Positions 35,411 to 64,000 of a stretch of DNA of 64,000 bases are shown in pieces. This DNA comes from a bacterium (GTDB lineage Bacteria; Hydrothermota; UBA3072; JAPDKE01), in the NCBI GenBank assembly GCA_029258725.1, contig JAPDKE010000022.1:10881-74880 (forward strand), in the 5' to 3' direction. The notes below the pieces were generated by a model. It made no database searches. It had not been told where the DNA came from and saw only the letters and a program-made list of their open reading frames with translations. The stretch's first letter is position 1; each line of letters starts with the position of its first letter. The translations under genes were made by a program, and so were the position numbers.

Positions 35411-36462
35411 AAATTTTATTCCTTCCCCTTTACGGAATAGGGGATACCCTGATGACAACCCCTGCCTTGAGAATTTTAAAAAGGGAAAGACCTGAATGGA
35501 AGGTTCATGTACTTACCATGTTCAAGTCAACCCATGATGTCCTTTTGAGAAATCCATGTGTGGATGAAATAATATTTTTTCCTCTTCTTTCTTCACGATG
35601 GCAGGGATTGAAATTTGCCTTTTCTTTAAGAGGTGAGTACAGGATAACAATAAACCCATACCCATCCAATAGAAGGGACTATAACATCCTTGCCTATCTC
35701 ATTCATGCACCTTATCGTCTTGGGCATGAGTATAAACAGGACAATTTTAAGGAGCTTAATTTTTTGAAAAACATAAGGATAATGGAGGATGATTCACTCC
35801 ATAATGTTGAGGAGAATATAAGATTGCTTGAATTGCTGGGGATAAAATCCAGGGAAAAACTTCCACTTGAACTCCATCTTTCTCCAGAGGAGATTGCATG
35901 GGGGAGAAGATACCTGGAGGAGAGAGGGATTGAGGGATTTCTTGTTGGTTCCCATCCGGGGTCAAGTCTTTTCAAATACCACACGGCAAAGAGGTGGGAT
36001 AAGGAGAAGTTCAAAAAACTTTTTGACATAATTCTTGAGGAAAGAAAAGATGCGAGGATTTTGCTTTTTGGAGGAAAAGAGGAACTGGGATTGAGGGAGG
36101 AGATAAGAAAGATAAACCCTGAAAGAATGCATGTTATTGATACAAAAACCGTGAGAGAAACTGCCGCAATAATGAAAAACCTTTCCATTTTCATAACCAA
36201 CGACTCAGGGGTAATGCACCTTGCTGCTGCATGCATGGTCCCGATAGTTGCAATATTTGGTCCAACAAATCCAGGATGGGTGGGTCCATGGGGTGTTCCA
36301 TCAAGGGTTGTTAGGCTTGGACTTCCATGCTCTCCATGTTTCCGGTACTCTCCAAAACCCATGATATGCTGGGCAAAAAGGAACTATGAGTGTATGAGAA
36401 AAATAGAGGTGGAGGATGTTTACAGGGCTTATCGTTCCCTTACTCGTGAGCTGGGAATATGA
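35407..36462 (+). CDS. Glycosyltransferase family 9 (ADP-heptose:LPS heptosyltransferase-like)
   Basis: 351 aa with GT9 architecture (N-terminal IGD...PAL motif, C-terminal [11 protein letters not shown] and GP.NP). Confidence 0.75.
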
Positions 36463-40681: not shown

Positions 40682-40903
40682 TCAAGGGGGTTTGTCCTTT
40701 TTTACCCTTTCTACCCTCCACTCTTCCTCTTTCCCCCTTACCCGGTAAAGGTTTCCATCCTCTCCCTTTAACAACCATTCCCTTTCGCCATTCTCAAAAA
40801 GAGAAGAGGAAAGAACCTCAACATAAATCCAACTTTCACCAACTTTTATCATCCTGGGATACTCATCCCCTTTTCCTCCTGAATAAAACCTCACCTCACT
40901 CAT
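40682..40903 (-). CDS. Possible small hypothetical protein (~73 aa)
   Basis: ORF in the 214-nt gap between the large peptidase-like gene and tRNA-Met. The longer track ORF (to 41023) overlaps the upstream gene. I see no recognisable domain and only a weak RBS. Confidence 0.2.
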   Translation of the reverse strand: MSEVRFYSGGKGDEYPRMIKVGESWIYVEVLSSSLFENGEREWLLKGEDGNLYRVRGKEEEWRVERVKKDKPP

Positions 40904-43340
40904 CTCCCTCAAGGGTGAACCTCCATGATAGTTTACCATTCTCCCACAAGAATTCAATTCCTGGCAGAATACCAAACTGACCAAAGGAAAACTTCGTCTC
41001 CAGAACCAATCTTGCACCCGCATATCTCTCTCTTATGTCCCTCTCCATTCCCTCAACCCCACCAAAGAGGGCGAAGAACATGTCTTCAAAGTAAACATTG
41101 GGATTCCACAGACCCAACTTGACCGGTAGAGGGATGGAAATTCCGCACCTCCCACCCCATGTTTCATCATCCCCTCCCCATGCATGGGCAAAAACCTTTA
41201 GATTTCCGAGCCACTTTCTTCCTCCAATATGCATTTCTGCCCTTCCCTTTCCTTCTTTTAAAAACCAGGTATACTCAGGAATCAAATAAAATGAAAGAGA
41301 AGGATAATTCCAGGCAAAGAAGAGATTTCCCTTTACCGTATCCGGTGAGGAAAAATAAGCCCGAACCCACAGAGAAGATAGCCCGTTTCTCATGCTTATT
41401 CTCAGAGGATACTCTCCTCCAGTCCGGTATGTGTAATTCCCTCCACGGTAAAATCCATAATACTCAAACACGAAAGGAGCGAGCATGGTGTTTATATAGC
41501 CAAATCCCACAACATTCTTTCCCGGGATTGTATCCGGAAGGATTACCAGGGCATATCCGTTGGTGAGGAGGACATCTGAGCCTGAGAGAAATACAAAGGG
41601 TAATATCCCACCCTCCATGGACGGAAGAACCATCCACAATCTCAACCAGGGGAAGAGGGTTAAGGCATCCTCAAGCAGTGGAGAGGCATTCCTGAAATAA
41701 GGTTTCCCCACCATCTTCTCTGCTTCCATCATTTCCAGGGATGCTTTTCCCTTAACCTCTGGAGTCTCACGGAACAGATGGATTCCATCCCCCTGTGGGG
41801 AGAAGAAATAGAGTTCACCATCAAGGATTACCGGGTCTCTGGCATAAACATAATCCGTGATTTTTTCAATTTCTCCATCGGGGTCCAAACGATAGATGTT
41901 GTATCTCCCACTGGTTGATGAGAAGTAAATGTATCCATCGTGGTAAAACGGGTCAACATCGGGACGGGATGAACAAATCAAAAGTTCAGACTCTCCATGA
42001 GAAATCCTGTAGATATCCCAGTTCTCACCCGGCATCCTTGCAACCATGAGAATTCCATCCTTCCCCTCCCTTATCTCCCCTATCTCAAGCCCTCCTGCAT
42101 ACCAGGGTTCTTCATCCCCGTACCGGTAAATTGCGTGTCTGGTTGCAAGGAACAGGGTATCCTTATAAAAGGTAAAGGAAACATAGGGGCCACGGGCAAT
42201 TATTCTTTCCGGTCCTCCAATTTCCTTCTCAACCAGAACCGCCTTCACTCCAAATCCCAGAAAACTTCTGTTTTCAAATCCCCTCCCCAGTTCTCCTTCC
42301 AGCACATAAAGTTTTCCATCGTGAATCACAGGTCTTGAGATAACCCATCCCACGGTCCGGTAAAGAGCCTCCTCCTTACAGGTATGGGGGTCAAAAAGGA
42401 CCACCTCCGTTATCCGTGCCACATCAAAGGGACCCCTTTTCTTACAGTATCTTCTAACATAACATATTCCCCAAGGACTCAGGGATGCAAGTTCACGGTA
42501 CATCCCCTTCTCAGTGAGTTTTCCCTGAGGAAATTTCTCTTTTCGTGCCTTGAACATCATCTCTCTCTTCCATATATTGTAAAGCATATCCAGGGTATGC
42601 CCGTAGGTAAAAATTGATGCAAGGTCTATTCCCAGGAGAGGAATAAGATTTCCTATTCCCGGAACCAGGGGATTCCAGGCATAATTCCCGAAAAATCGGG
42701 AAAAGGACTCCTCTCCATAAACCTCTGAGATCCACCTCATAAAACTCCCGCCATAGAAATATATCCTCTCCAACGGAAAGTCCGAGGCATCCGATGCTGC
42801 CCTCACAGGTGAGGTTATTTTACCCTCCCTTGCCTGAGCAAGAACCACCGCATCAAGATATCCATCGTTAAGCCTTCCTGCGTATGGGGAAATCCTTGAC
42901 TCGGCATAGACCGTGATTCCCTCAACCACCCATCCAGGAGAGTACATGTTTGGCTGGAAGAGGTCCCCCCATAAAAATCTCTGCAGGCTTGACAATCCTG
43001 CGGTATGGGTGAGGTGTGAGATGTGGGTGTATTCGTGAACGGATACAAGTTTCCACCAGTCGGGGGTTGAGGTGAGGATAAAGGGGGATGGAGGATGGGG
43101 AAGGAGGTGGATCTGGGGATTTATCGGGCTTGCAAATCCATTCGGCACAATTCCGGCATCTTCAATCACAACCGGAACATGTTTTGGAGAGTTACCGGTA
43201 AGGGAGTCAACCATTGGTTTGTAATGCTCAAGACAGGATATGGTCCACTCTGCCTCTTTCCTCAACTCCGGAGGATAGAATACCGTGAAGTGTTCGGAGC
43301 GGATTGCGTCCCAGAAAAGGTAAGAAAAAAGGAATATCAT
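40896..43340 (-). CDS. Large envelope protein with N-terminal HExxH zinc-metallopeptidase-like domain, central TolB-like beta-propeller and C-terminal beta-rich domain
   Basis: 814 aa. The zincin motif is VSVHEYTHISH. The central region has WD40/TolB-like repeats (YRISHGESELLICSSRPDVDPFYHDGYIYFSSTSGRYNIYRLDPDG). The start overlaps the MFS stop (ATGA). Confidence 0.5.
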   Translation of the reverse strand: MIFLFSYLFWDAIRSEHFTVFYPPELRKEAEWTISCLEHYKPMVDSLTGNSPKHVPVVIEDAGIVPNGFASPINPQIHLLPHPPSPFILTSTPDWWKLVSVHEYTHISHLTHTAGLSSLQRFLWGDLFQPNMYSPGWVVEGITVYAESRISPYAGRLNDGYLDAVVLAQAREGKITSPVRAASDASDFPLERIYFYGGSFMRWISEVYGEESFSRFFGNYAWNPLVPGIGNLIPLLGIDLASIFTYGHTLDMLYNIWKREMMFKARKEKFPQGKLTEKGMYRELASLSPWGICYVRRYCKKRGPFDVARITEVVLFDPHTCKEEALYRTVGWVISRPVIHDGKLYVLEGELGRGFENRSFLGFGVKAVLVEKEIGGPERIIARGPYVSFTFYKDTLFLATRHAIYRYGDEEPWYAGGLEIGEIREGKDGILMVARMPGENWDIYRISHGESELLICSSRPDVDPFYHDGYIYFSSTSGRYNIYRLDPDGEIEKITDYVYARDPVILDGELYFFSPQGDGIHLFRETPEVKGKASLEMMEAEKMVGKPYFRNASPLLEDALTLFPWLRLWMVLPSMEGGILPFVFLSGSDVLLTNGYALVILPDTIPGKNVVGFGYINTMLAPFVFEYYGFYRGGNYTYRTGGEYPLRISMRNGLSSLWVRAYFSSPDTVKGNLFFAWNYPSLSFYLIPEYTWFLKEGKGRAEMHIGGRKWLGNLKVFAHAWGGDDETWGGRCGISIPLPVKLGLWNPNVYFEDMFFALFGGVEGMERDIRERYAGARLVLETKFSFGQFGILPGIEFLWENGKLSWRFTLEGDE

Positions 43341-45180: not shown

Positions 45181-48100
45181 TTACCTCAGGTACACCGTCT
45201 TCAGTCTTCCCTCGTAGTCGGGTGCCGTCATCCTGAAGATGTAGATTCCGGATGCAACCCTTCTTCCACTCTCGCTGGTTCCATCCCATCTCACCACATG
45301 ATATCCAGGCTCAAGTTCGCCATCAACGAGTGTCTTCACCTTTCTTCCCATCACGTTGAACACCTCAACCTTCACATGCGCCCTGTAAGGAACACCAAAT
45401 CTCACGGAAGTAGCATTGTGGAATGGATTCGGTGAAGCACCAAGCAGTGCAAACTCAGCAGGTGCACCAACCCTGTGCTCAACGGATGTTGTAGCAAGAT
45501 ACTCAACCTTACCACCCTTCATCATTCCGACTCTGTAGATGTATGTCTCACCGATCTTTACATCCACATCCAGATACTCATAGGTATTTGGTCTTGTAGC
45601 CCTGGAAGGCTCAACGCGGGCAAGTTCGATCCAGTCATCACCATTCTTCTTTTCAAGAACCCATGCATCAACGTTGGAATTGGAAGTGCTCCAGGTGAGC
45701 TTCACACCAGCAGGGGTTGAGATACCATAGAAGTTGGTAAGGTAGGTTGCAAGGGTTACAAGAACATAGGACTCAGGTGAGCTGAACGGGCTTGATGTGT
45801 AGATATTGTATGCCTTGAAGGCATAGTAGTAATCGTAGTTATTGAAGTCAAGTCCGGTGTCAATGAAGTATGTGTCTGGAAGGGTGTATTCATTGGGTGC
45901 CACAACAACTCCAACTCTCGTGTATGCCTTCCTTGGAGGCACGCCCGTATTTTTACCCTTGGAAACCGCCTCCCTGTAAATCACGATGCTGTCCGTGAAC
46001 TCCCACCATGGTCTCTGATGCCAGTGGAGTGTGCATGCGGTCTGGCTTCCTGTTCTTGTAATCTTGTCCGTAACAGGGACAGGAGGTCTTGGAGCAACGA
46101 GGGGCTCAACATCAAAGCACCAGACCTTGAACTGGTTCCAGTCCGCCTGCCAGAGGTAGTATGGAGGCTGCCATGCATTATCGTAGAGGAGACAGGAATC
46201 GGGCTCTTTAACATCCTGAGAAGGTGGCCAGAACTCCTGAAATGGCTCAAGATAACGGTCTGGCTGGAATCCTCTTCTTACAACGGACATCCAGGTTGCT
46301 CCTCCAACCGCCTCTGCACCGCTTCCATAGGTGGTCCACCATGCCCTTCCATCCCATGCAAGCCCTCTTCCATTTGGCATGAACCATGCGGAATCCGCCT
46401 CTATGAGATAGGAATCATACCTGAGCTGTCCATTGGGTCCATGATATCCAAGTGTCTCGGCAACGGGTGGAACCCTGTCAAGTGCAGGGACTGCAGCACC
46501 TATGGAATCGGGGTCATCGTCTTCTCCATTACTATCTCCACTGTAGTAGTCATGCCACCATGCGTAGAGTCTGAAGTTGGAGTAATCAGGATAACCTGAA
46601 GATGTAATGGTGGGTCCTGCGTCAACTCCCCTTATACGCTTGACCTCCGTTCCATCTCTTCCTGCCCTCGCTGCATAAACCGTTGCCTCCACATACAAGG
46701 CAGTAAGTCTTGTGAGGTCTCCTCCGGAGACCGTGTATTTGTAAAGCGAGTCTCCTCCTGTAACCCAGAGGGTATCGGTTCCTGGCCAGAATTCTGCACC
46801 CATTGGATATCTGTCCTGAGAGTAAGAAAGTGCTCCTATGCGGCTTGGATTCTTGGGATCGGCTACATCGTAGTAATCACCGCCCCATGTCTTATCGCTG
46901 AAGTTCACCCGGAACACGTAGAGATAGTCGTTGACATCATCAAATGCAATGCCAGAGGGGTTTGGATAGTTATCGTTGGTGAAATCCAGAGTTGCAATTA
47001 TGTGCTGATGGCAGGTCTGGAGAATAAATGTGCATGTATCATTCCCCTGATCCGATGTTATTGCTATCCTCATCCTGGCACCATAAAGAGGAGGAGTGTA
47101 GACGGAGAGCCATATCCTGAATGGTGCACTGGAATTCCATACGGTGTCTGCAGCACCATGGGTGATGGTTCCGTATGAGACAGGTCCACCATTTATCACC
47201 TTCACATAATTTTCATCCTCACCAGGTATAAGAGATGCATCTACATTGGTAAGGTCCACGGATGTTCCAATGGGCTGATAGAGTCCTATGTAAACATCAA
47301 GGGTCTCCCCGGGTTCAGGAATTGTATCTCCATCGTTGGAACTCGCTATGGTGGTAAGGTCTTCCACATTATAATCTGCCACAGCAATCTTTGTTCCTCC
47401 ATCTCCATATATCTTATTCCTCAACCACTCCCATGCCCTCACCAGGTCTATCATACCCCATCCGTAGGTATTGTCATTTCCGGCATCTCCCTTATCCTTC
47501 GCTGTTACCATCAGTGCCTTCTTTATTGTATCCATGCATGCAACACCATACATCTTCTCAAGGGTATCACCAAAGATGGAGTAAAGCAGTCCATATGCAC
47601 CGGTTACATGGGGGGTTGCCATTGAGGTTCCCCATCCTGTCTCATACCAGTACTGCTGCATTCCCCTTCCACTCCACTCCCTTCCCATACAGGATATAAC
47701 CTCTGCACCAGGAGCACACACCTCTGGTTTGGTATCCTCTCCTCCCTGATTACAATCTGAGGGACCGCGTGAGGAGAACTTACACGCAGTATCTGCCTCC
47801 TGTCCATTCTCATAGTGCTGGACCACTGCTCCAACCGAGAAAACACTGTAGTCGGTATAGTTATTCTGTCCTGGAGAACAGGCAGTGCTTGCGTCAGGAC
47901 CATCGTTTCCTATGGCAAATATCATTGCAACACCAGCGGCCTCTGCATTTTTAATCCTGTCATCATCCTGAGTTACGCATCTCGAAGAAGAAGAGTATCC
48001 ATAGGAGTTATTTGCTGCAACAGGAACATCGTCAATCGTTGAGGAATTGCCATCCGGGTCTGCAACCCACTGCTGGCAGTCATCCATGTAGTTGAGGTCT

Positions 48101-48993
48101 CCAGGACCCTGAGAGGCTCTGCATCCTATCCACATTGCCTCCGGAGCAACACCAACCGGATGTGTCCCGTCCTCCTCCATTCCAACCATGGTGCCGGTCA
48201 CATGGGTTCCGTGGGTGAAGTCGGTGGGTCCCGGGTCTCTTGGAAGCCACTTTTCCTCCGCAGTGGCTCCTCCTGGATAGTAGAAGTACTGAGTATCACT
48301 CGCCGCATGCCAGAGGGTATCCCCATACACCAGGTAATGCTTCCACTTCCAGTAAAGTGCAGGGTGGAATGCATCCACACCCGAGTCAAGAGTTGCAAGA
48401 AGAACCCTGTCCCAGGAAGCAGCCCTTCCACTTCCATCACCGCCATTCGTGACCTTCACCATCTTCCCTCTGTACCCCATGTTCCACAGTTCAGGGGCAT
48501 GAATGTGTCTTATATGCCAGACCGGCTGGGTTGGGTCTATTTTCGTAGGGTCATAACCACCTATCTTCACAGGTCTTATCAGTTTCGGAGGAACAAATTC
48601 TCTCACAAGATATACCTCAGGTAATGCCGCAATCTGCTCTATTATGTCCCTGGTTGCAGTGAGCTTCACATAGTTTGCAATCCACATCGGTTTGTACCAG
48701 GAAACCTTACCCTTTGCCTTACCAGCCTTCGCTATCTTTATCACATTTTTCTGGGTCCGCCTTGCTGTTTCCCTCAAACCATCAATAACCGCCTTGTGAA
48801 TCTCCGCAAAGGTCCTTCCCTCCTCGGTCATCCTGTTCCTCACTGCCCAGGCATCAAACTGCTCCACCATCTCCACAACAACCGTAAACATATCCTGAGG
48901 GGATGCCTTCTCGAGTTTCTGCCTGAGGGAATAGGAGATGGTACCACCCATCAAAAACATGGGTAAGACCATTAAAAGAAGCAAGCGCCTCAT
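45181..48993 (-). CDS. Secreted subtilisin-like serine protease (peptidase S8) with N-terminal I9-like propeptide, large C-terminal extension and T9SS-type sorting domain
   Basis: 1270 aa. Signal peptide, then the catalytic triad motifs ATLDSGVD (Asp), HGTHVTGTM (His) and GTSMATPHVTG (Ser). The C-terminus is a CTD (LLGASPNPFHNATSVRF...GIYIFRMTAPDYEGRLKTVYLR). Confidence 0.85.
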   Translation of the reverse strand: MRRLLLLMVLPMFLMGGTISYSLRQKLEKASPQDMFTVVVEMVEQFDAWAVRNRMTEEGRTFAEIHKAVIDGLRETARRTQKNVIKIAKAGKAKGKVSWYKPMWIANYVKLTATRDIIEQIAALPEVYLVREFVPPKLIRPVKIGGYDPTKIDPTQPVWHIRHIHAPELWNMGYRGKMVKVTNGGDGSGRAASWDRVLLATLDSGVDAFHPALYWKWKHYLVYGDTLWHAASDTQYFYYPGGATAEEKWLPRDPGPTDFTHGTHVTGTMVGMEEDGTHPVGVAPEAMWIGCRASQGPGDLNYMDDCQQWVADPDGNSSTIDDVPVAANNSYGYSSSSRCVTQDDDRIKNAEAAGVAMIFAIGNDGPDASTACSPGQNNYTDYSVFSVGAVVQHYENGQEADTACKFSSRGPSDCNQGGEDTKPEVCAPGAEVISCMGREWSGRGMQQYWYETGWGTSMATPHVTGAYGLLYSIFGDTLEKMYGVACMDTIKKALMVTAKDKGDAGNDNTYGWGMIDLVRAWEWLRNKIYGDGGTKIAVADYNVEDLTTIASSNDGDTIPEPGETLDVYIGLYQPIGTSVDLTNVDASLIPGEDENYVKVINGGPVSYGTITHGAADTVWNSSAPFRIWLSVYTPPLYGARMRIAITSDQGNDTCTFILQTCHQHIIATLDFTNDNYPNPSGIAFDDVNDYLYVFRVNFSDKTWGGDYYDVADPKNPSRIGALSYSQDRYPMGAEFWPGTDTLWVTGGDSLYKYTVSGGDLTRLTALYVEATVYAARAGRDGTEVKRIRGVDAGPTITSSGYPDYSNFRLYAWWHDYYSGDSNGEDDDPDSIGAAVPALDRVPPVAETLGYHGPNGQLRYDSYLIEADSAWFMPNGRGLAWDGRAWWTTYGSGAEAVGGATWMSVVRRGFQPDRYLEPFQEFWPPSQDVKEPDSCLLYDNAWQPPYYLWQADWNQFKVWCFDVEPLVAPRPPVPVTDKITRTGSQTACTLHWHQRPWWEFTDSIVIYREAVSKGKNTGVPPRKAYTRVGVVVAPNEYTLPDTYFIDTGLDFNNYDYYYAFKAYNIYTSSPFSSPESYVLVTLATYLTNFYGISTPAGVKLTWSTSNSNVDAWVLEKKNGDDWIELARVEPSRATRPNTYEYLDVDVKIGETYIYRVGMMKGGKVEYLATTSVEHRVGAPAEFALLGASPNPFHNATSVRFGVPYRAHVKVEVFNVMGRKVKTLVDGELEPGYHVVRWDGTSESGRRVASGIYIFRMTAPDYEGRLKTVYLR

Positions 48994-49747: not shown

Positions 49748-50239
49748 ATGCTGAGATATCTTATGGAGGAAGAGAAAAAGAGACTTTTTTCTATTGCAGA
49801 GAAGAAGGATTATCAGGAGGGAGAGATTATCTTCTCCGAGGGGGATAAAAACAAGGAAATGTATATCATTGAAAAAGGGAAGGTAAAGGTATTTCTGGAA
49901 AGGGAAGGTGAAGAGATAGAACTTTCAACATTTTCAGAAGGAGAATTTTTTGGGGAGATGGCATTGTTTACAGGAAGGGAAAGAACCGCATCTATAAAGG
50001 CAATAGAACCCACCACCCTTCTTATATTTAAAAGGAAGGATATGGAGAGACTTATAGAAGAGCATCCAAAGATAGGGGCAAAGGTTCTTTTTGCCGTAAT
50101 AGAGGAAATTTCTGAAAGGCTTGCCAGAACAAACGAGGAATTTGAGACCTACTACCTGATTCACCGGGCCCTGCGGGAGAATCCCGGTTTCAGGGAAATG
50201 TTTTTGAAAATGATAAGGAAAAATGGAGGTGGAAGATGA
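49748..50239 (+). CDS. Stand-alone cyclic-nucleotide-binding (cNMP/CAP effector-type) domain protein
   Basis: 163 aa with the FGEMALF...RTASIKA phosphate-binding cassette and no DNA-binding or other output domain. Confidence 0.65.
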   Translation: MLRYLMEEEKKRLFSIAEKKDYQEGEIIFSEGDKNKEMYIIEKGKVKVFLEREGEEIELSTFSEGEFFGEMALFTGRERTASIKAIEPTTLLIFKRKDMERLIEEHPKIGAKVLFAVIEEISERLARTNEEFETYYLIHRALRENPGFREMFLKMIRKNGGGR

Positions 50240-52443
50240 TATACCTGGTTTATGTACTCTCATTCCCATCTGCTGCATCAGGGAGTGGATGTTTTCATGT
50301 AAGGACAGCAAAAACACTTCCAATGGCAAATATATCCGTCAACCTCAATTTCTTTTATTCCAGGGAGAAGTACCTCAACAGGTACAGATATCCTGACATG
50401 AGAGGTTACAGTGTTTATCATCACTACGCTACCTCAAAAATAGGCATCACTTATGGAATAATAGACTACATTGAGGCATTCCTTGGAACCACCGTTTATG
50501 GAAAGTATGATGAGCAGACGGAGGTGGGAGAGGATATTCCCACCAATGACCTCTATCTTGTAGGGGATAAAAACTTTTACGGAGGTCTTAAATTCTGGGT
50601 TCCTCTGATAAATACCCCGGAGCTCCTGGTCAAATGGAACATAGGGGGAGAGATATCAGGGAAGAGAAGTGTGTTTGATATTCAGGATGAGGATACCATG
50701 TTTATCCGTGAGTTCTCTCCAACATTTCCTACATGGGGGGTTCTTGAAGGAAGGCTGCTTACCGATGTAGAAATAGGCCCCCTGCTCATCCATCTCTCCG
50801 GAGGATACAGAAGAAACTTTGACAACAAAGGTCTCTCCTTCCCTGCGAATATGGAAGCAATCCAGAGCCTGCCCCCTGATGTCCAGCTGAGATTGATAGA
50901 GTACTGGAGCAGTTTCTATGATCCCCCTTACACAAACGCTCTGGTATGGGGAGTGGCAACCGAGATTCTTCTGGGACCATACGCGAGTTTTATTCTTGAA
51001 GGAAGCGGGGTATATCTCCCTTACCGATTCCTGGACATGGCTCCTGCAAATTACCCTGCAGGGGCGGATACATCCATAGGAACCGTGGGAATAAGATTTA
51101 TCACACCTGTTGGTGTGACCTTTGACTTCTCCGTTGACTGGCTGTTTACCCACAAAGATTTCGTGGGAGACTGGTACTTTACAGGCGTACATACACTTCC
51201 CAGAGAAACCGAATGGGAGTATATACCCTCAGGTACTGAAGTGGAAAATTACTACAACGTCCTTGGAAGATGGAGATACCACTTCGGAATAACCACAACC
51301 AATCCCCTTATACCAGAGCCAGAGGAACCCCCAAAAGGGGAAATTGCTGTTAGTGTCAGAGACGCACACACAGACCTTCCGCTGGTAGCCCAGGTCACTG
51401 TTGAAAAGGAGGGAGAGGTTATTGAGGCATTGCCCACGGATGAGGCAGGAAATCTCCTTCTCAGCCTTGCCCCCGGGATTTACAAAATTTCCATATCCAA
51501 AGAGGGATACATAACAAGGAAGTTCACGGTGACGGTGAAGAAAGGAGCGAGTGTAAACCTGCCTGTCTCTCTTAAAAAGAAAACCATTCCAACCGGTATA
51601 GTCGCTGTAAAGGTTACTGACAGCAAAACCGGAAATCCCGTGATGGCAAATATAACCTTCTCAGACCCCGAAATTTCCCCGATAACAACCGATGTTAATG
51701 GAGAGGCAAACATAAAACTCAAACCCGGAAGTTACGAACTCACAATAACCGCGGAAGGATACCATCCAAAGACGGTTCCTGTGAGCGTAAAGCAGGGTGC
51801 ATCAATTCCACTTCCCGTTGTTCTTGAGCCCGCAACCACGGCAAAGGGAATATTCACAGGAACCGTTACAGATGTTAGAACAGGAAAACCCGTGGGTGCA
51901 AAGATAACCTTCCTGGGCACGAATCTTAAACCCATCGTATCCGACCTTGAAACAGGAATATTCAAGGTTGAACTGCCTCCAGGGACCTATCAGGTGAAGG
52001 TTGAGGCTGATGGATATCAGCCAAAGGCAATACCGGTGGTGATAAAAGAGGGAGAGACGACAATCCAGTACATAAAACTGGCGGAGAAACTCACAAAGAA
52101 GAAGAGAATTGTCCTTCAGGGAATAAACTTTGACCCTGGCAAGGCAGTGATAAAGCCCATGTACTACCCCATTCTTGACAGGGTTGCGGAGGTCCTGAAA
52201 GAGAATCCCAATGTGAAGGTTGAGATACAGGGACATACCGACTCTGTTGGACCGGAAGACTACAACCTCAGGCTCTCACAGGCAAGGGCTGAGGCGGTAA
52301 GACAGTATCTCATAAGCAAGGGAATCTCCCCTGACAGGCTCATTGCAAAGGGATACGGTGAGATGATGCCAATTGCAGACAACCGCACACGGGAGGGAAG
52401 GGCAAAGAACAGAAGAATTGAGTTTGTCGTAATAGAGGAGTGA
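50236..52443 (+). CDS. OmpA-family outer-membrane protein with 3-4 carboxypeptidase-regulatory-like (Big/CarboxypepD_reg) repeats
   Basis: 735 aa. The N-terminal region is beta-rich. Tandem ~80-aa repeats follow (G.I.V.V.D..TG.P..A.IT.......I.TD..G.....L.PG.Y...I.AEGY.PK..PV.VK.G). The protein ends with an OmpA_C peptidoglycan-binding domain (NFDPGKAVIKP...LSQARAEAV...NRRIEFVV). Confidence 0.75.
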   Translation: MIYLVYVLSFPSAASGSGCFHVRTAKTLPMANISVNLNFFYSREKYLNRYRYPDMRGYSVYHHYATSKIGITYGIIDYIEAFLGTTVYGKYDEQTEVGEDIPTNDLYLVGDKNFYGGLKFWVPLINTPELLVKWNIGGEISGKRSVFDIQDEDTMFIREFSPTFPTWGVLEGRLLTDVEIGPLLIHLSGGYRRNFDNKGLSFPANMEAIQSLPPDVQLRLIEYWSSFYDPPYTNALVWGVATEILLGPYASFILEGSGVYLPYRFLDMAPANYPAGADTSIGTVGIRFITPVGVTFDFSVDWLFTHKDFVGDWYFTGVHTLPRETEWEYIPSGTEVENYYNVLGRWRYHFGITTTNPLIPEPEEPPKGEIAVSVRDAHTDLPLVAQVTVEKEGEVIEALPTDEAGNLLLSLAPGIYKISISKEGYITRKFTVTVKKGASVNLPVSLKKKTIPTGIVAVKVTDSKTGNPVMANITFSDPEISPITTDVNGEANIKLKPGSYELTITAEGYHPKTVPVSVKQGASIPLPVVLEPATTAKGIFTGTVTDVRTGKPVGAKITFLGTNLKPIVSDLETGIFKVELPPGTYQVKVEADGYQPKAIPVVIKEGETTIQYIKLAEKLTKKKRIVLQGINFDPGKAVIKPMYYPILDRVAEVLKENPNVKVEIQGHTDSVGPEDYNLRLSQARAEAVRQYLISKGISPDRLIAKGYGEMMPIADNRTREGRAKNRRIEFVVIEE

Positions 52444-57208: not shown

Positions 57209-58116
57209 TTTCGGTTATAATTCCGGTTTACAATGAGGAAGAATCCCTTGAGGAACTCCATGAGCGTCTTTCAGGGGTGATAAAGGATGGAGAATTCATA
57301 TTTGTGGACGATGGCTCAACCGACCGAACACCTGAAATTCTCAAAAAATTAAAGGAAAAGGACCCCAGGGTTAAGGTATTCACCTTCACAAGAAACTTCG
57401 GGCAGACCCAGGCGCTCATGTGTGGATTTGAGCATGCGAAGGGGGATATCATCGTAACCCTTGATGCGGACCTCCAGAATCCCCCTGAGGAGATTCCAAA
57501 ACTCGTAGAAAAACTCAACGAGGGATACGATGTTGTGAGTGGGTGGAGAAAAAATAGAAAGGATGGATTTCTGAGAACCCTTGCCTCGGAAATCGCAAAC
57601 CGGATAATCTCAAAAATCTCAGGAATACCTCTTCATGACTTTGGATGCACCCTAAAGGCTTACCGGAAAGAAATTGTCAAAAGTTTGAAACTTTACGGGG
57701 AGATGCACCGGTTCACTCCGGTTGTTGCAGGGTGGATGGGGGCAAGGATTGCAGAGGTTGAGGTGGGGCATGAGAAAAGAAAGTATGGGGTTTCAAAATA
57801 CGGGCTTTCAAGGATATGGAAGGTTCTGCTTGACCTCTTTGTTCTTGCATATTTCAATTCCCCCAGAAGAACACCCATTCACATATTTGGAACATGGGGA
57901 ATTCTGTCCATTGTGGGGAGCCTTATTTCAGGGATTGCAACCCTGTGGATGAAGATAGGTAAGGGAATAGACATGACGGGAAACCCCCTCCTTTATCTTA
58001 CAATCCTGCTTGCAGTTCTCGGTGTCCAGTTCATAGGAACAGGATTGCTTGGAGAACTCATGGTGAGGACCTATTACGAGTCAACGGGAAAGAAAACCTA
58101 TCGTCTTAAAGAATGA
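57205..58116 (+). CDS. GT2 family glycosyltransferase (polyprenyl-phosphate sugar transferase, DPM1/ArnC-like) with C-terminal TM helices
   Basis: [19 protein letters not shown] and TLDADLQ (DXD) are GT-A motifs, followed by two C-terminal TM helices. Confidence 0.8.
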
Positions 58117-59171
58117 AAATATTGCTCATTGCACCAACCCCATTTTTTTCCGACAGGGGATGCCATGTGAGAATTTATGAGATTGCAAGGGGATTTGAGG
58201 AACTCGGGCACAGGGTCCTTATCTTAACCTACGGGACCGGAAGGAATGTGGGATTGAGGGTGAAAAGGGTTCCGGTGAGGGTTGAGAACATACCCGGTCC
58301 ATCCTTAAAAAGGTTGATTGCCGACTTTTTGATGATATTCTATGCCCCATGGATTTCATTCCGGTGGAGACCGGATTTAGTATTTTCCTTCCTTCACGAG
58401 GGAATTATTCCTGGAAAACTTGCATCCTTTATTTCAGGGAAAAAACTCCTTTCTGACCTTCAGGGAAGCCTCCCTGGGGAACTTTCCCAGTATGGGGTAA
58501 AATTCTGCGGGTTTTTCAGGTGGGTGGAAAAAATCCTCTTGCTCATGCCGGATGTTGTTACCGTGAATACGCGCTATCTTGCAGAAAAACTGGGGATAAA
58601 AAAATACGCGCTTTTGCCTGACTTCCTCCCATCCATTGAGCCTGTTGAGGTAAAAAAAGAAAAAAACAGGGGAGTTTATGTGGGTGTTCTTGGTCCACAT
58701 CAGGGAACAGAACTCATGCTTGAGGCACTTTCAAGGGTGAAGAGGGAATTCAGGGTGGATATTATTGGATATCCCGGGGAGGAAAAATACAGAAGGATGG
58801 CTCAAAGGATGGGTCTTGGAGAAAAGGTGAGTTTTCTGGGAAGGGTGGAGTATCACCGCCTCCCCTTTTATCTCTCCCGTGCATCATTTGCTCTTGCACC
58901 AAAGGTTTCAGAGAGTGAGGGAAATGGAAAAATGCTCCTTTATGCAAAGTTTCGCCTTCCCATAATTGCATGGGATACTCCGGTGAACAGGGAAATCCTT
59001 GAAGATGGCTTCATCCCGGTTCCCCCTGGAGATATAGAGGCTTTTTCCCGTGCGGTTGAAAAGGCGGTGGATGGGGAATTTAAGAATTATGGAGACCGCG
59101 CATTCAAAAACGCAAAAAACTTCCTTGCCTGTTTTTATCTCAATGAATTACTGAAGGGTTTTCCTATCTGA
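58113..59171 (+). CDS. GT4 family (group 1) glycosyltransferase
   Basis: 352 aa with a GT-B fold and the E-X7-E-like motif (SESEGNGKMLLYAKFRLPIIAWD). Confidence 0.7.
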   Translation: MKILLIAPTPFFSDRGCHVRIYEIARGFEELGHRVLILTYGTGRNVGLRVKRVPVRVENIPGPSLKRLIADFLMIFYAPWISFRWRPDLVFSFLHEGIIPGKLASFISGKKLLSDLQGSLPGELSQYGVKFCGFFRWVEKILLLMPDVVTVNTRYLAEKLGIKKYALLPDFLPSIEPVEVKKEKNRGVYVGVLGPHQGTELMLEALSRVKREFRVDIIGYPGEEKYRRMAQRMGLGEKVSFLGRVEYHRLPFYLSRASFALAPKVSESEGNGKMLLYAKFRLPIIAWDTPVNREILEDGFIPVPPGDIEAFSRAVEKAVDGEFKNYGDRAFKNAKNFLACFYLNELLKGFPI

Positions 59172-61665
59172 GCCTGCACACCTTTATACATTTTTTCATG
59201 TTCTCTGTCTCAAGATATATGAAATAAATTCCGGAAGGAAGTTCCCGTCCCTTTTCATCTTCTCCCTTCCAGATAATTTCACCCTCCGGGTTCCCGCTGA
59301 ATGTCTTTACCCTTCTTCCACAAATATCATATATGCATATCTTTACCTCTCTCACGTTACCCGAGGAATAACGGATGAAAAGATAATCAGTGAAAATGGA
59401 AGGAAAAGCCCTGAGTGTAAGAGGACTTTCTTTTCTCTCCATCCCGGCAAACGGTGAAATAATGCCTCTTATTCTCATTGAATTTACCGGATTGCTGTTT
59501 ATGCTTTCTGTCCATCCAGCATACACCACGACCATTTCTCCTCCGCTTCCGGAGGCACAGACAGGTGATATCTGTGTTCCGGTGTCCACTGCTATGGTGA
59601 ACATCTGTAAAAGGGAGCCATCTGAAGAAACCGTTGCACCCCGAATATCGCATGTATCTATTACAGAATCCCTCCATACGAGAAAGTATTCGGTCCCGTT
59701 GAAAATAATCCATGGGTCACGCTGTGGACCTGGCTCCTCAATAATGGGGATGGGAAGAATGTCCAGGACCTCTCCATCGGGTGTTACTCTTGCTCCTGCG
59801 ATATCAATCTCGCCGTCTGTCTCCTCCTCCCATACAACCAGATAATTTGTTCCATCAAATGCAACGGAGGGGTCGTATTCAAATAAGGGAAGCATGGGAT
59901 AGGTTATGGCAATACGCACGGTATCTATCAGTTCACCTCCAGGAGTAACCCTTGCTCCGTAAACATCCCCATACCCTGTGCTCCAGTCCTCCCATACAAC
60001 CAGGTAATTTGTTCCATCAAATGCGAGAGCAGGGTTTATCTGTGCTCCTGATAATATTGAAACTGGAATCCCTGGAGAGTCAAGAACCTCTCCCTGAGGA
60101 GAGACTCTGGTGCCGTAAATATCGGATGTATCATTTCTTGAATCCTCCCATACGACAAGATAATTTGTGCCGTCAAATGCCACAGCAGGGTTTTTCTGAT
60201 TACCCGACACCGCACATATGGGGATTCCCGAGGTATCCAGCAGTTCTCCATCATAACTAACCCTTGCCCCGTATATATCCGCATCTCCATTCCTCCAGTC
60301 CTCCCATACAATCAGATAGTCTGCTCCATCCGAACCCACCGAAGGATGGCATTGTTCGGCATCAGCGGAGGACACGAGTACAGGTTGAGAATCAAGCAGA
60401 ATTCCACCGGAGGAAAATCTTGAGGCATAGATGTGATGAAAGAGAAGGCTGTCGCGGTTATCCTCCCATACAACCATGTAGTTCGTCCCATTGAAAGAAA
60501 TGGAAGGAGAGGACTGGGAAAATGAAATTAAAGGTATTACCCGTGCAGTTTCCGAAACCTCTCCCTGAGGACTTATGAAGGTAGAGTATATATCGCTGTA
60601 ATTATCCCATGCCACAATAAATTTTTCTCCATTAAAAAGCACGCAGGGTGTGAATTCTATATCGGGGGAACGAGAGATAGGAATGTAATGGGTATCAATA
60701 ATTTCTCCATCCGGATTAAGTCTCCTCCCGAAAATATCAAGTGATTCACGAAAGACCACGAAAAAGCAGTTGCTGTCAGAGCAGATGGAAGGGGAGAAGG
60801 CGATTGAGTTTGTAATGGAAATTGAGGGGGTATCAAGGACTTCAAGGGAAGGAGTAAATCTCAGTCCCTCAAGAGTAAAGGAATCCCAGTCCTCCCATAC
60901 AACCATGTAGTTCGTTCCATCAAATGTGAGGGAAAGGTTTTCCTGGAAGCCGGGGGCAGTGTAAACTGGAACTCCAGAGGTATCAATGACTTCTCCTGCA
61001 GGGGTTACTCTTGCTCCGTATATATCGGTATTTCCATTCCTCCCATCTTCCCATACCACCATGTAACTGGTTCCATCAAATGCCATAACCGGGGCATTTT
61101 GCTCTCCCTGTGCAGGGGAGACAGGAATACCTGATAAATCCAGAACCTCTCCTCCTGGAGTAACTCTCGCCCCGTATATATCGGATGTGTCGTTTCTCCA
61201 GTCCTCCCATACAACAAGATAATTTGTGCCATCAAAGGCAATGGTGGGGTTTAACTGATTTCCGGAGGCAGTGGAAATGGGGAAACCGGTACTATCAAGA
61301 ACCGTCCCTTCAACGGTTATCCGTGCACCGTAAATATCCGCAGTATCATTCCTCCAGTCCTCCCACACAACAAGATAGTTGGTTCCATCAAATGCAACTG
61401 CAGGGTTTTTCTGGTCTCCAGATGCAGTGCATACCGGTATTCCTCCTCCTTTATCCAGTATATTTCCGGAATTATCCATCCTTGCCCCATAAATATCACA
61501 TTCTCCATTTCGTCTATCCTCCCATACAAAAAGAAAATTCACTCCATCCCATCCAATCACTCCCTGATACTGTTCTCCCGGACAGGGATAATATCTCACC
61601 GTGGTGTCCGGAAGGAAGGGAGTGGAGTTTATATCCTGCTGAAAAAGTAAAAAGAAAAACAGCAT
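59164..61665 (-). CDS. Secreted protein built from ~14 tandem 48-residue repeats (predicted double beta-propeller) with T9SS-type C-terminal sorting domain
   Basis: 833 aa. The repeat unit is DIYGARVTP.GEVLD.SGIPVS...G.Q.NPAVAFDGTNYLVVWEDWRN. The C-terminus is a CTD (..SGIYFIYLETENMKKCIKVCRLR). A hydrophobic N-terminus is present. Confidence 0.6.
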   Translation of the reverse strand: MLFFFLLFQQDINSTPFLPDTTVRYYPCPGEQYQGVIGWDGVNFLFVWEDRRNGECDIYGARMDNSGNILDKGGGIPVCTASGDQKNPAVAFDGTNYLVVWEDWRNDTADIYGARITVEGTVLDSTGFPISTASGNQLNPTIAFDGTNYLVVWEDWRNDTSDIYGARVTPGGEVLDLSGIPVSPAQGEQNAPVMAFDGTSYMVVWEDGRNGNTDIYGARVTPAGEVIDTSGVPVYTAPGFQENLSLTFDGTNYMVVWEDWDSFTLEGLRFTPSLEVLDTPSISITNSIAFSPSICSDSNCFFVVFRESLDIFGRRLNPDGEIIDTHYIPISRSPDIEFTPCVLFNGEKFIVAWDNYSDIYSTFISPQGEVSETARVIPLISFSQSSPSISFNGTNYMVVWEDNRDSLLFHHIYASRFSSGGILLDSQPVLVSSADAEQCHPSVGSDGADYLIVWEDWRNGDADIYGARVSYDGELLDTSGIPICAVSGNQKNPAVAFDGTNYLVVWEDSRNDTSDIYGTRVSPQGEVLDSPGIPVSILSGAQINPALAFDGTNYLVVWEDWSTGYGDVYGARVTPGGELIDTVRIAITYPMLPLFEYDPSVAFDGTNYLVVWEEETDGEIDIAGARVTPDGEVLDILPIPIIEEPGPQRDPWIIFNGTEYFLVWRDSVIDTCDIRGATVSSDGSLLQMFTIAVDTGTQISPVCASGSGGEMVVVYAGWTESINSNPVNSMRIRGIISPFAGMERKESPLTLRAFPSIFTDYLFIRYSSGNVREVKICIYDICGRRVKTFSGNPEGEIIWKGEDEKGRELPSGIYFIYLETENMKKCIKVCRLR
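59800..61560. repeat. Intragenic ~144-bp tandem DNA repeats encoding the 48-aa protein repeats
   Basis: The string ccagtcctcccatacaac.ag.taatttgt.ccatcaaatgc recurs (with variation) about every 144-160 bp (seen at ~59820, 59985, 60145, 60300, 60888, 61040, 61200, 61355). Confidence 0.6.
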
Positions 61666-61686
61666 GACATAACCTCCTTGGAAAAG

Positions 61687-61706
61687 GGAGGGGGAAATCC
61701 CCCTCC
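61687..61706 (-). terminator. Hairpin (GGAGGGGG-AAAT-CCCCCTCC) between two CTD-protein genes; possible terminator or attenuator
   Basis: Perfect 8-bp GC-rich stem immediately downstream of the 61716 stop, followed on the minus strand by CTTTTCC and then the AAGGAGG RBS of the next gene. Confidence 0.35.
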
Positions 61707-61715
61707 CCGGGTTGG

Positions 61716-64000
61716 TTATTTAAGAATCATAAACCTGCCCTTCGCCTCCTTTTCTCCCGCCCTTATTCTGTAGAAGTACACACCGGGCTTTCCGCTCCAG
61801 GTATAACGATAAACACCAGCACTCCTGTAACCTGAGTGGTTCTCAACCATTCTACCCACCACATCGTAAATTTCTATCTTTACCCTGGAATCGTGAGGCA
61901 CAGCATACTCTATCACTGCATTACCGCCCATACTTCTCAACGCTCTGGCATAGAAGGAAATTTTCGGCTCCGTGGTTCCAGAGGCAAGTGGTCCACCGGA
62001 CCTTACAGACCTCCTCTCCTCCGCATAAAGAGCAATAGACGCAACTGATGCATAATCCCCTGTGTATCTTTCTATGGTAACCACTATCTTACCGTCATCC
62101 CGATAGTATGGGAAAGGTATTTTTATACTCAGGGTTTCCGGAATCCCTGCCTTTACCCTAAGCATTCTTCCTTTCTTTCCGTCTATTTTAACCTTCTCCT
62201 TCCATATTCCCGAGGACTCATGATATCCCACTATCTGAAGTGTATAATCGTAAAGAGTATCCAGGAAGGGAATCTCGTACATGAGTTCTTCAGTATCATA
62301 ATCAACAGAGATACCAGAAGGATATACCAGATATCCGTCTCTTTCAATCACATAGGGAGATGGTATGGAATCTCCAATCTTCACTGCAATGAATGGAATT
62401 TCAGCCACAGATATCCATGTATTTGTCAATATCTCACATCCATGAGTTTTCCCATAAACCAGATGCACCTCTCCATCATGATATTGTGCCTGAGGACCAT
62501 ATCCTTTATCTGTAAAGATAACATTCCCGGTGGTGTCCGTAAGATAAACCTTTCCATCCATCTCAAACAGGAGATATGCTCCTTCAACCATCCTGGGATG
62601 ATGAGGGTCACCATCAACTTCCATGTAGGAAGGATAGGTATATGCCCATCTTATCTCCGGAGGAAGAGCAAGCCATCCTTCCTGCCATGCGATTCTTTTC
62701 TTTCCGGTTACTGTATTTTCCTCTATCCATACGCAGTAGAGTTTATCCCCTTTGTAAGAGAGAGAAGGTTCGTATGCAGGGAAGGCGAGCATGTTTATCT
62801 TCCATGGCTGTGTCCAGTTTCCTGTAAGGTCTCTTGTGCTGTAATACACATCTTCCTTATCACCCCATACCACATGGATTCCATAGTAACCCACAAGAGA
62901 AGGAGGATACCAGGGCATACTCACCAGGCTATCAACAACCTCCCATTCAGTGGGCGAATTCCAGTCTCCACGGAGATATTCTCTATAAAGTATGCTTCCC
63001 TCACCGAAGGAATTGAGAAGCATTGCGAGGCATATATTGCCATTGCTATTAAGTGCAAGGGAGGGAGCAATAGGCATGGGGTATGGGTCAGGCTGAGTGG
63101 GGTCCACATAGTCTTCCAGCAAAACATAATTCCACTCTTCAGGAAGTGAAGGCTCGGAAGTTTCCAGCAAAGACCACCATTCCATGCTATCCGCACCCCA
63201 GAGTTTATAACCCGTATTACCCGCTGTCCAGTAATGAGCAAGAACGTTTGGGAACAACAACTTCGCCCAAACGTACAGGGATGGATACCTCATATGTCCT
63301 ATCCTCACCGGCCTTGACCATGTATGTCCATCAAAACTTGCTATACCCTTCGTTTGTCCACCATCGGAATACACATACACCCACTTGTTATATGCAAGGG
63401 CAAGTTTGTTCTGAGAGGAGAAATTCAGGTCTTCAGTGGAAGTGAGAAGACCAAGAGGATATCTTATTTCTATGGAGATAGGTGTGCTTTCATATCCGTA
63501 AACATCGTAGGAGGTCACAAAGTAGGTATCAATGTCTCCAGGAATAAAGTCAGGGAGGGTATCACAGAATACGCTGTCGTGAACATCGCCCACCAGAGCA
63601 GTATTTCTATAAATCCGATATCCGGAGAAGTCTATCTCTTTGTTCATCAGCCATTCAAAGTGAATAAGCAGGGTATCGCCTATTCTTCCAAAGGTATAAG
63701 TTACACCGCGAGGAGAAGCAGGAGGCTTAAAGTCATCCCATACAAGGTAGGTGGAAGAACCTATATTTCCAGGGTCGGAATACTGGGGGGTTTCCAATCC
63801 CCAGTAGCGATACCAGGAGTCATGTGTTTCCACCCACTGGAATGCCTCCCACATGGAGGTATGTCTGTTACCATCAAGGTCGGAGGGAACCGGGGGAGGA
63901 TTATCATAAGGCCATATCTCGGTCTGTCTTACTGCATTCATCACATGGAAGTTAAACTCACCATGGTGGCAGGTATCGCCAGGTTGCCATTCTTCGTTTT
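61716..64000 (-). CDS. Secreted FN3-domain-containing protein with T9SS-type C-terminal sorting domain, partial (N-terminus beyond window end)
   Basis: The track ORF starts at a GTG at 63944, but the reading frame stays open to the window end (..NEEWQPGDTCHHGEFNFHVMNAV..), so the true start lies outside the window. The C-terminus is a CTD (..GVYFYRIRAGEKEAKGRFMILK). An FN3-like segment is present (PPASPRGVTYTF...GYRIYRN). Confidence 0.6.
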   Translation of the reverse strand, partial: NEEWQPGDTCHHGEFNFHVMNAVRQTEIWPYDNPPPVPSDLDGNRHTSMWEAFQWVETHDSWYRYWGLETPQYSDPGNIGSSTYLVWDDFKPPASPRGVTYTFGRIGDTLLIHFEWLMNKEIDFSGYRIYRNTALVGDVHDSVFCDTLPDFIPGDIDTYFVTSYDVYGYESTPISIEIRYPLGLLTSTEDLNFSSQNKLALAYNKWVYVYSDGGQTKGIASFDGHTWSRPVRIGHMRYPSLYVWAKLLFPNVLAHYWTAGNTGYKLWGADSMEWWSLLETSEPSLPEEWNYVLLEDYVDPTQPDPYPMPIAPSLALNSNGNICLAMLLNSFGEGSILYREYLRGDWNSPTEWEVVDSLVSMPWYPPSLVGYYGIHVVWGDKEDVYYSTRDLTGNWTQPWKINMLAFPAYEPSLSYKGDKLYCVWIEENTVTGKKRIAWQEGWLALPPEIRWAYTYPSYMEVDGDPHHPRMVEGAYLLFEMDGKVYLTDTTGNVIFTDKGYGPQAQYHDGEVHLVYGKTHGCEILTNTWISVAEIPFIAVKIGDSIPSPYVIERDGYLVYPSGISVDYDTEELMYEIPFLDTLYDYTLQIVGYHESSGIWKEKVKIDGKKGRMLRVKAGIPETLSIKIPFPYYRDDGKIVVTIERYTGDYASVASIALYAEERRSVRSGGPLASGTTEPKISFYARALRSMGGNAVIEYAVPHDSRVKIEIYDVVGRMVENHSGYRSAGVYRYTWSGKPGVYFYRIRAGEKEAKGRFMILK

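Follow-up and report, generated by a model that had tools for sequence, protein, structure and literature searches.

Repeat anatomy of the gene

The window analysed here is a 64,000-nucleotide stretch of contig JAPDKE010000022.1 (assembly GCA_029258725.1) from a bacterium of the Hydrothermota; all coordinates are positions in it. On its minus strand lies the gene with which we are concerned, which encodes a long tandem-repeat protein with a short leader and a C-terminal domain of its own (Table 1); an identical protein (P0001) is also present in NCBI and Logan assemblies. An initial annotation of the window had singled out this gene for its repeats. As set out below, its product is a member of the TIGR04275 beta-propeller repeat family, very likely folded as two seven-bladed propellers, and may act as an exported, multivalent surface binder.

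The protein is composed of 14 tandem units, each ending in an [LMF]VVWED-like strand (strand ends at aa 45, 98, 150, 202, 254, 302, 350, 397, 451, 503, 555, 609, 661 and 711). A profile derived from the units found exactly these 14 copies across all frames of the window, with no paralogue of the repeat elsewhere in it. Whereas the initial annotation had described about 14 near-identical repeats with a period of 48 residues or 144 bp and W-E-D-W as the blade signature, only the count stands: units are 47–54 aa long with a mode of 52 aa (156 bp), direct DNA repeats lie 156 or 162 bp apart, and pairwise protein identity ranges from 14 to 71%, with values of 57–71% reached only among units 2–5, 10 and 11, and with units 1, 6–9 and 14 strongly diverged. 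'WEDW' itself is limited to 5 of the 14 units; what is conserved is VVW-x-D. For the best units (2–5, 10 and 11), the consensus first proposed, DIYGARVTPxGEVLD...NPAVAFDGTNYLVVWEDWRN, is essentially correct.

Each blade of ~52 aa comprises four strands in the order PAVAFDG, NYLVVW-x-D, DIYGARV and GIPIS. The consensus of 696 internal blades from 58 proteins reads WRNGxxDIYGARVtpxGxVLDPxGIaISTAaxxQxxPaVAFDGTNYLVVWeD, with the highest column conservation at W50 (99%), R12 (98%), G17 (97%), D52 (96%), D21 (95%) and P37 (93%). The strongly conserved W, R, D, G, Q and P residues recur in every blade and are structural. Variation is found in columns 31–36 (the loop before the innermost strand), 1–6 (the loop after the W-x-D strand) and 14–18, and these columns are rich in Y, W, F and S.

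Table 1 Features of the propeller gene and its upstream region (window coordinates)
Feature	Position	Strand	Basis and remarks
Complete coding sequence	59164..61665	-	Open reading frame listing: 833 aa + stop; leader, 14 blade units, linker, C-terminal sorting domain
Hydrophobic leader, aa 1-12 (MLFFFLLFQQDI)	61630..61665	-	AlphaFold2 pLDDT <50 for aa 1-12; presumed, atypical Sec signal
Propeller 1, units 1-7 (~aa 17-382)	60520..61617	-	Unit map, separate AlphaFold2 model, Foldseek; units 6 and 7 degenerate, 48 aa
Propeller 2, units 8-14 + closing strands (~aa 383-740)	59446..60519	-	Unit map, full-length AlphaFold2 model, closure motif; units 8, 9 and 14 degenerate
C-terminal beta-sandwich, T9SS type A sorting-domain / FlgD-Ig-like (aa 750-833)	59167..59418	-	AlphaFold2, profile scores
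Shine-Dalgarno-like AAGGAGG, ~7 nt 5' of the ATG	61673..61679	-	Direct sequence reading
G+C-rich hairpin then T-run, between the upstream T9SS-tailed gene and the propeller gene	61691..61708	-	Terminator scan and sequence reading
T9SS, type IX secretion system; pLDDT, predicted local distance difference test.

Predicted fold

An AlphaFold2 model of the full chain, built with a 70-sequence alignment, has a mean pLDDT of 92.1, a predicted template modelling score (pTM) of 0.72 and four strands per unit. When units 1–7 (aa 13–382) were modelled alone, pLDDT was 92.0 and pTM rose to 0.90, again with four strands per unit; the higher pTM of the seven units compared with the whole chain is what a compact, self-contained domain would be expected to give. 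The boundary between the propellers, at about aa 382/383, was placed from the strand order. The second propeller carries a conserved closure motif (Y715, G717 and R731–G734) and is followed by a short flexible linker, modelled at low confidence (aa 741–746), and a seven-strand sandwich (aa 750–831).

Foldseek searches of the PDB with both the full model and the single propeller returned only beta-propellers, tandem seven-bladed ones included. For the full model, PorZ (5m11) was the second-best match (E 2.8e-14), and Elp2, a tandem seven-bladed WD40 protein, had the best template modelling (TM) score (0.45–0.47). The seven-repeat segment, whose comparison had been suggested at the outset, retrieved TolB at the top (E 6e-9), together with S9/prolyl-oligopeptidase propellers and the seven-bladed lactonase PpgL; these single-propeller matches have TM scores of 0.45–0.62 and identities of 8–16%, with E values of 6e-9 to 1e-7 for the TolB and S9 types. 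With the pLDDT of 92, the four strands per unit and the seven-unit pTM of 0.90, the propeller-only Foldseek result supports the early guess of two propellers, and on the models the protein very likely consists of two seven-bladed beta-propellers.

Family identity and spread

The repeat had been described as one that could not be named. It does have a catalogue entry, NCBIfam model TIGR04275 (beta_prop_Msarc, 'beta-propeller repeat protein'), whose curated cutoff of 85 bits this protein exceeds with 110.2 (E 2.7e-32), with seven stretches at E≤1 and five at E≤0.001. A match of this kind had been named at the outset as one that would refute the description. The best of the stretches, aa 76–112, covers the G-I-P-x-S / P-A-V-A-F-D-G / N-Y-L-V-V-W-E-D core. 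All 40 of the homologues tested also match this model (best E 1.3e-40). TIGR04275 is a 40-residue repeat descriptor to which no function is assigned, and it is silent on the 52-aa period, the 7+7 architecture and the sorting tail seen here. The initial exclusion of Kelch, BNR, NHL and FG-GAP holds: none of the Pfam models for Kelch, BNR/Asp-box, NHL, FG-GAP, WD40, SBBP or LVIVD matches this protein at E≤1 (SBBP matches 1 of 40 relatives), and Pfam offers no true model of the repeat. Pfam matches to DUF3659, LRR_TTSS, Peptidase_M23_N, GH43 and PurS were rejected, as each lacks an individually significant stretch and arises from a short motif summed over 14 repeats; the NCBIfam match to Lnu(C), which at 42 bits is far from its cutoff of 300, was dismissed as the same summed-repeat noise. 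A match to the phage virion protein 8jou_D (E ~0.01) spans one blade-length stretch.

The family is very large. A first search gave more than 5,100 significant relatives among the candidates scored, and cluster representatives at 50% identity number 27,750 at E≤1e-3 and 5,940 at E≤1e-30, with more than 569 loci in species-representative genomes. Hosts belong mostly to candidate division WOR-3, often with three or four paralogues per metagenome-assembled genome (MAG) or chromosome; further hosts, other FCB-group candidate phyla among them, include Edwardsbacteria, Stahlbacteria, TA06, Eisenbacteria, Latescibacteria, Gemmatimonadota and Cloacimonadota. For relatives from Myxococcota and Actinomycetes, the match ends before the C-terminal tail. 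Source annotations of relatives read 'hypothetical protein', 'T9SS type A sorting domain-containing protein' and once, in a myxobacterium, 'TolB family protein'; a literature search on the TIGR04275 propeller family found no paper. The gene is thus an ordinary member of a very large, catalogued and functionally uncharacterised repeat family.

Age of the repeats and reliability of the unit count

The initial annotation had taken the DNA identity between units as a sign of recent expansion or contraction and had warned of assembly collapse, and the data support neither proposal. At residues identical between units, the same codon is used in 47.5% of cases, compared with the 41.7% that the gene's codon usage predicts; for the six units most alike, the values are 48.9% and 42.4%. 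Synonymous sites are therefore nearly randomised. What similarity the DNA retains follows from conservation of the protein and does not come from recent duplication, so the repeats are old. The cluster defined at 90% identity contains six additional sequences that are not identical and that come from independent NCBI, JGI, ENA and Logan assemblies; each is 833 aa long, and they differ by 4–7 substitutions without any indel. Among 70 full-length homologues at 35–45% identity, 58 have 14 detectable units and the others 12–13, which makes the 14-unit architecture old and family-wide.

An unreliable count, arising from a tandem DNA repeat that had recently expanded or contracted or had been mis-assembled, is accordingly extremely improbable. 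Families of direct repeats at 156-bp spacing do exist inside the gene, as that explanation would have it, but those recovered by a seed-and-extend search are just 60–87% identical over 45–287 nt, the longest exact word common to two units is 26 nt, and Tandem Repeats Finder reports no array of this period at score thresholds of 50 or 30; the codon, allele and homologue data given above speak against it as well. Codon-aligned DNA identity between units is 32–69%. The identity between blades of one protein does not vary with their offset, and offset 7 gives no peak; a whole-propeller duplication from 7 to 14 units, if there was one, has therefore left no trace.

Conservation within and between blades

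Across the 70 homologues, 277 columns are conserved at the 80% level or above, and the blade consensus accounts for 258 of them. The remaining 19 are made up of an E-F-L motif near the N-terminus, a pair of mis-registered consensus arginines, residues of the C-terminal closure (Y715, G717, R731–G734 and residue 744) and positions in the tail. None of the 277 is a blade-specific conserved polar residue of the kind that an axial active site would need.

In their variable columns, internal blades (2–13) are 24.1% identical to the same-numbered blade of other family members and 23.9% identical to differently numbered ones; internal blades therefore lack positional orthology. To other blades of their own protein they are 35.2% identical, independent of the distance between blades. 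In the window protein, for example, column 18 is E in 9 of 12 blades, compared with a family frequency of 4%, and P26, S31, G32 and N36 are also common to many of its blades. A control with same-genome paralogues gave a smaller and heterogeneous excess (pooled, 0.265 within a protein versus 0.220 and 0.211 between paralogues), and one recent paralogue pair does show positional orthology. The within-protein similarity reflects some combination of selective constraint shared by all blades of a protein, occasional homogenisation and composition bias.

Export signals

The C-terminal sandwich resembles the domains that direct cargo to the T9SS. The family profile matches the solved C-terminal domains of T9SS cargo proteins, 8glk_D (E 8.4e-5) and 8glj_D, as well as FlgD Ig-like domains; the tail scores 19.4 with FlgD_ig, just below the cutoff, and TIGR04183 was found in 23 of 40 homologues. 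Three other open reading frames (ORFs) in the window, namely the upstream neighbour, a C25 peptidase and an S8 subtilase, end in the same kind of tail. The presence in the window of lpxH, which encodes the UDP-2,3-diacylglucosamine diphosphatase of lipid A synthesis, indicates a two-membrane bacterium. At the N-terminus, most homologues have longer, canonical signal peptides; one (P0039) has a similarly short leader. The leader is kept in all seven alleles of the cluster, with one F3Y change, and on reading the sequence no alternative in-frame start was seen between the preceding stop and the ATG. Taken from these sequence features, both the secretion route and the surface location are predictions.

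Putative function and alternative identities

We propose that the gene encodes an exported 14-blade TIGR04275 protein, with 7+7 propellers and a T9SS-type tail, that serves as a non-catalytic multivalent binder at the cell surface, and we give this proposal as a whole a probability of about 0.5; its structural and family part, taken alone, is highly probable. The protein would cross the inner membrane by the Sec pathway, after which its C-terminal domain, judging from domain homology, would be recognised by a T9SS-like outer-membrane pathway and the protein displayed on the cell surface or released. Outside the cell, the two rigid propellers may then offer a lectin- or adhesin-like binding platform, in which the D–A and B–C inter-strand loops, variable and rich in aromatic residues, would contact a repetitive ligand such as a glycan. 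A non-catalytic binding propeller is suggested by the combination of the sorting tail, the lack of blade-specific conserved residues, the variable aromatic-rich loops shared between blades, the multiple paralogues and the fusions seen in longer relatives, in which the sole fusion partners of the propellers are adhesion-type modules of extracellular proteins: Laminin_G_3 (with a T9SS tail), Disintegrin, Big_9/Cadherin_5, TNFR_c6 and Ephrin_rec_like. That the blades of one protein share variable residues is the pattern expected if all of them bind the same ligand.

Several observations weigh against this proposal. The leader (MLFFFLLFQQ) is very short and has no basic n-region. The tail falls just under all curated cutoffs (TIGR04183, 20.4 against 23; PF18962, Por_Secre_tail, 19.3 against 27; CHU_C, 23.8 against 27), and no core T9SS machinery gene was identified within the window. 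The number of blades per propeller derives from pTM and strand counts rather than from inspected coordinates. The excess of within-protein blade similarity shrinks in the paralogue control, so composition bias or occasional gene conversion could explain part of it. The binding role is a prediction, and the nearest lectin candidate, CV39L, is linked to the family at motif level only, its homology not being established (E 0.022; hhalign probability 9%).

CV39L and BP39L (PropLec7C) are lectins that bind L-fucose and mannose (PMC11186620). They are seven-bladed with blades of ~48–50 aa, and CV39L has DGNAYLVxWQD where the repeat described here has DGTNYLVVWED; the likeness amounts to one beta-hairpin motif, DG-x-x-YLV-x-W-[QE]-D. 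CV39L (6gxs) is the sole PDB propeller reached by the family sequence profile, at the E value given above and with no individually significant stretch, and the hhalign profile–profile comparison extends over 18 columns. The NCBIfam lectin model NF052350 gives this protein E 1e-5, at 24.8 bits against a cutoff of 350, and relatives values as low as 1e-22, and CV39L was not found among the top 50 Foldseek matches. Unlike the 7+7 protein, both lectins are single propellers without a sorting tail. A wider proposal, namely that the family is an extensive and so far unrecognised group of tandem-propeller lectins or adhesins displayed at the cell surface, distantly related to CV39L and BP39L through this hairpin, is tentative and on present evidence rather doubtful. 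All 12–14 blades of one protein would then share ligand-binding loop residues that differ between paralogues, which would explain the likeness of blades within a protein, the absence of positional orthology and the several paralogues in WOR-3 and related genomes.

Three other identities were weighed against a surface binder. Single-propeller Foldseek matches to the gluconolactonase PpgL, S9/prolyl-oligopeptidase, a GH family enzyme and sialidase-type enzymes, together with weak summed Pfam GH43 matches in 7 of 40 relatives, would fit an enzyme with its active site on the propeller axis, such as a lactonase, a glycoside hydrolase or a peptidase-gating propeller. At no more than 16% identity and TM scores of 0.45–0.62, however, the structural matches reflect generic propeller similarity, and the GH43 and other Pfam matches are summed repeat noise. 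Moreover, no conserved residue is specific to one blade (of the 277 conserved columns noted above, 258 are structural consensus and the others are terminal or belong to the tail), and neither this protein nor any relative examined carries a catalytic domain, which leaves an enzyme unlikely. A periplasmic, TolB-like envelope protein that is not surface displayed is quite unlikely. TolB is the top single-propeller match, with S9-peptidase propellers also among the best, one myxobacterial homologue bears its name, and the blade motif (P-x-x-x-F-D-G, a hydrophobic strand, R-x-G, D-I-Y) follows a similar general logic and may resemble the PD40 repeat consensus. TolB, though, combines one six-bladed propeller with an N-terminal alpha/beta domain, so that both blade number and domain context differ from the 7+7 blades and sorting tail found here. 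Neither Pfam nor NCBIfam gave a PD40 (PF07676) or TolB match at E≤1, genomes carry the family in several copies, and the extracellular adhesion-type fusions in relatives count against a periplasmic role.

PorZ, which in Porphyromonas gingivalis consists of two seven-bladed propellers and a C-terminal domain and delivers anionic lipopolysaccharide to the PorU sortase (PMC8545088, PMC5121618), poses the question of whether the protein could be an accessory component of the T9SS itself. The architecture is identical, with 7+7 propellers followed by a T9SS C-terminal beta-sandwich, 5m11 ranks second in Foldseek as noted, and the same window encodes a C25 peptidase that weakly resembles PorU. Yet the propellers have no sequence relationship: the PorZ model (NF052228) scores 15.6 bits against a cutoff of 260 and aligns with the tail only (aa 774–826), and in Foldseek identity is 11% and TM 0.39. 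PorZ is single-copy machinery, whereas this family is multi-copy, with three or four paralogues or more in WOR-3 MAGs, occurs also outside T9SS-bearing phyla and is tail-less in Actinomycetes and Myxococcota; this distribution argues against a single-copy machinery component, and a PorZ-like role is very unlikely.

Within the window the gene is of little consequence, since it adds another copy to a beta-propeller repeat family that is already catalogued and very common. Experiments may be worthwhile on the whole family more than on this single gene. The ~28,000 clusters of the family, mostly from uncultured phyla such as WOR-3, have a fixed 7+7 propeller architecture and unusually consensus-like blades, and no member has a solved structure or a Pfam model. 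Were the family to consist of multivalent glycan-binding surface proteins, a great many secreted proteins of candidate phyla now labelled 'hypothetical' would gain an annotation, and the family would provide a natural example of highly symmetric propellers.

Genomic context

The upstream neighbour (61716–64000, minus strand) is listed as a 742-aa ORF that runs past the window end, with no in-frame upstream stop; in a Logan contig (L080, 1–2950) its product is 1,228 aa. It has a TIGR04183 tail (33 bits) and no Pfam domain in the window part, and the part outside the window gives just weak LVIVD-repeat and Peptidase_C13 signals. The terminator-like hairpin that separates it from the propeller gene (Table 1) suggests a separate transcription unit; the number of terminator-like sites that the scan found in this region is not above chance. 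At its other end, the propeller gene overlaps by 8 bp (59164–59171) the 3' end of a convergent gene for a GT4 glycosyltransferase (58113–59171, plus strand), with no intergenic terminator between the two.

The C25 peptidase (24907–28395, minus strand; 1,162 aa) has CUB-like, CARDB and Peptidase_C25 (gingipain/PorU-type) domains followed by its T9SS tail, and it matches the PorU sortase model weakly (64.6 bits; cutoff, 420). In five related loci (L014, L040, L060, L065 and L077), a homologous C25 gene is found no more than a few kilobases from the propeller gene. The S8 subtilase (45181–48993, minus strand; 1,270 aa), with its FlgD_ig / T9SS-like C-terminal tail, is another probable secreted cargo. 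A 735-aa protein (50236–52443, plus strand) contains three CarboxypepD_reg-like domains, PEGA and a C-terminal OmpA peptidoglycan-binding domain; its score with the PorE model is likewise weak (93.8 bits against a cutoff of 600). Neither the PorU nor the PorE match is enough to demonstrate a T9SS.

The genes flanking the propeller gene are housekeeping genes, encoding GT4 and GT2 glycosyltransferases, RuvB, RuvA, YebC and UvrD. A tblastn search of the window neighbours against 79 related loci revealed no conserved neighbour beyond local synteny in one relative and no functional operon partner, the other matches being to scattered C25-peptidase or T9SS-tail sequences. In one related MAG (L062, 8632–11621; JBAQHK010000103.1), genes for YebC, RuvA and RuvB lie immediately downstream of the propeller homologue; this order mirrors that of the window minus the two glycosyltransferases, and so reflects genome synteny, not a functional operon. 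Two further ORFs, one of 814 aa (40896–43340, minus strand) and one of 642 aa (36416–38344, plus strand), have no NCBIfam match at the thresholds used, and the former has no Pfam match either. Inside the propeller gene, the sole Tandem Repeats Finder match at the lowest threshold is an 8-nt tandem repeat, CTCCAGTC, present in 2.5 copies at 60285–60304, which is almost certainly due to chance.

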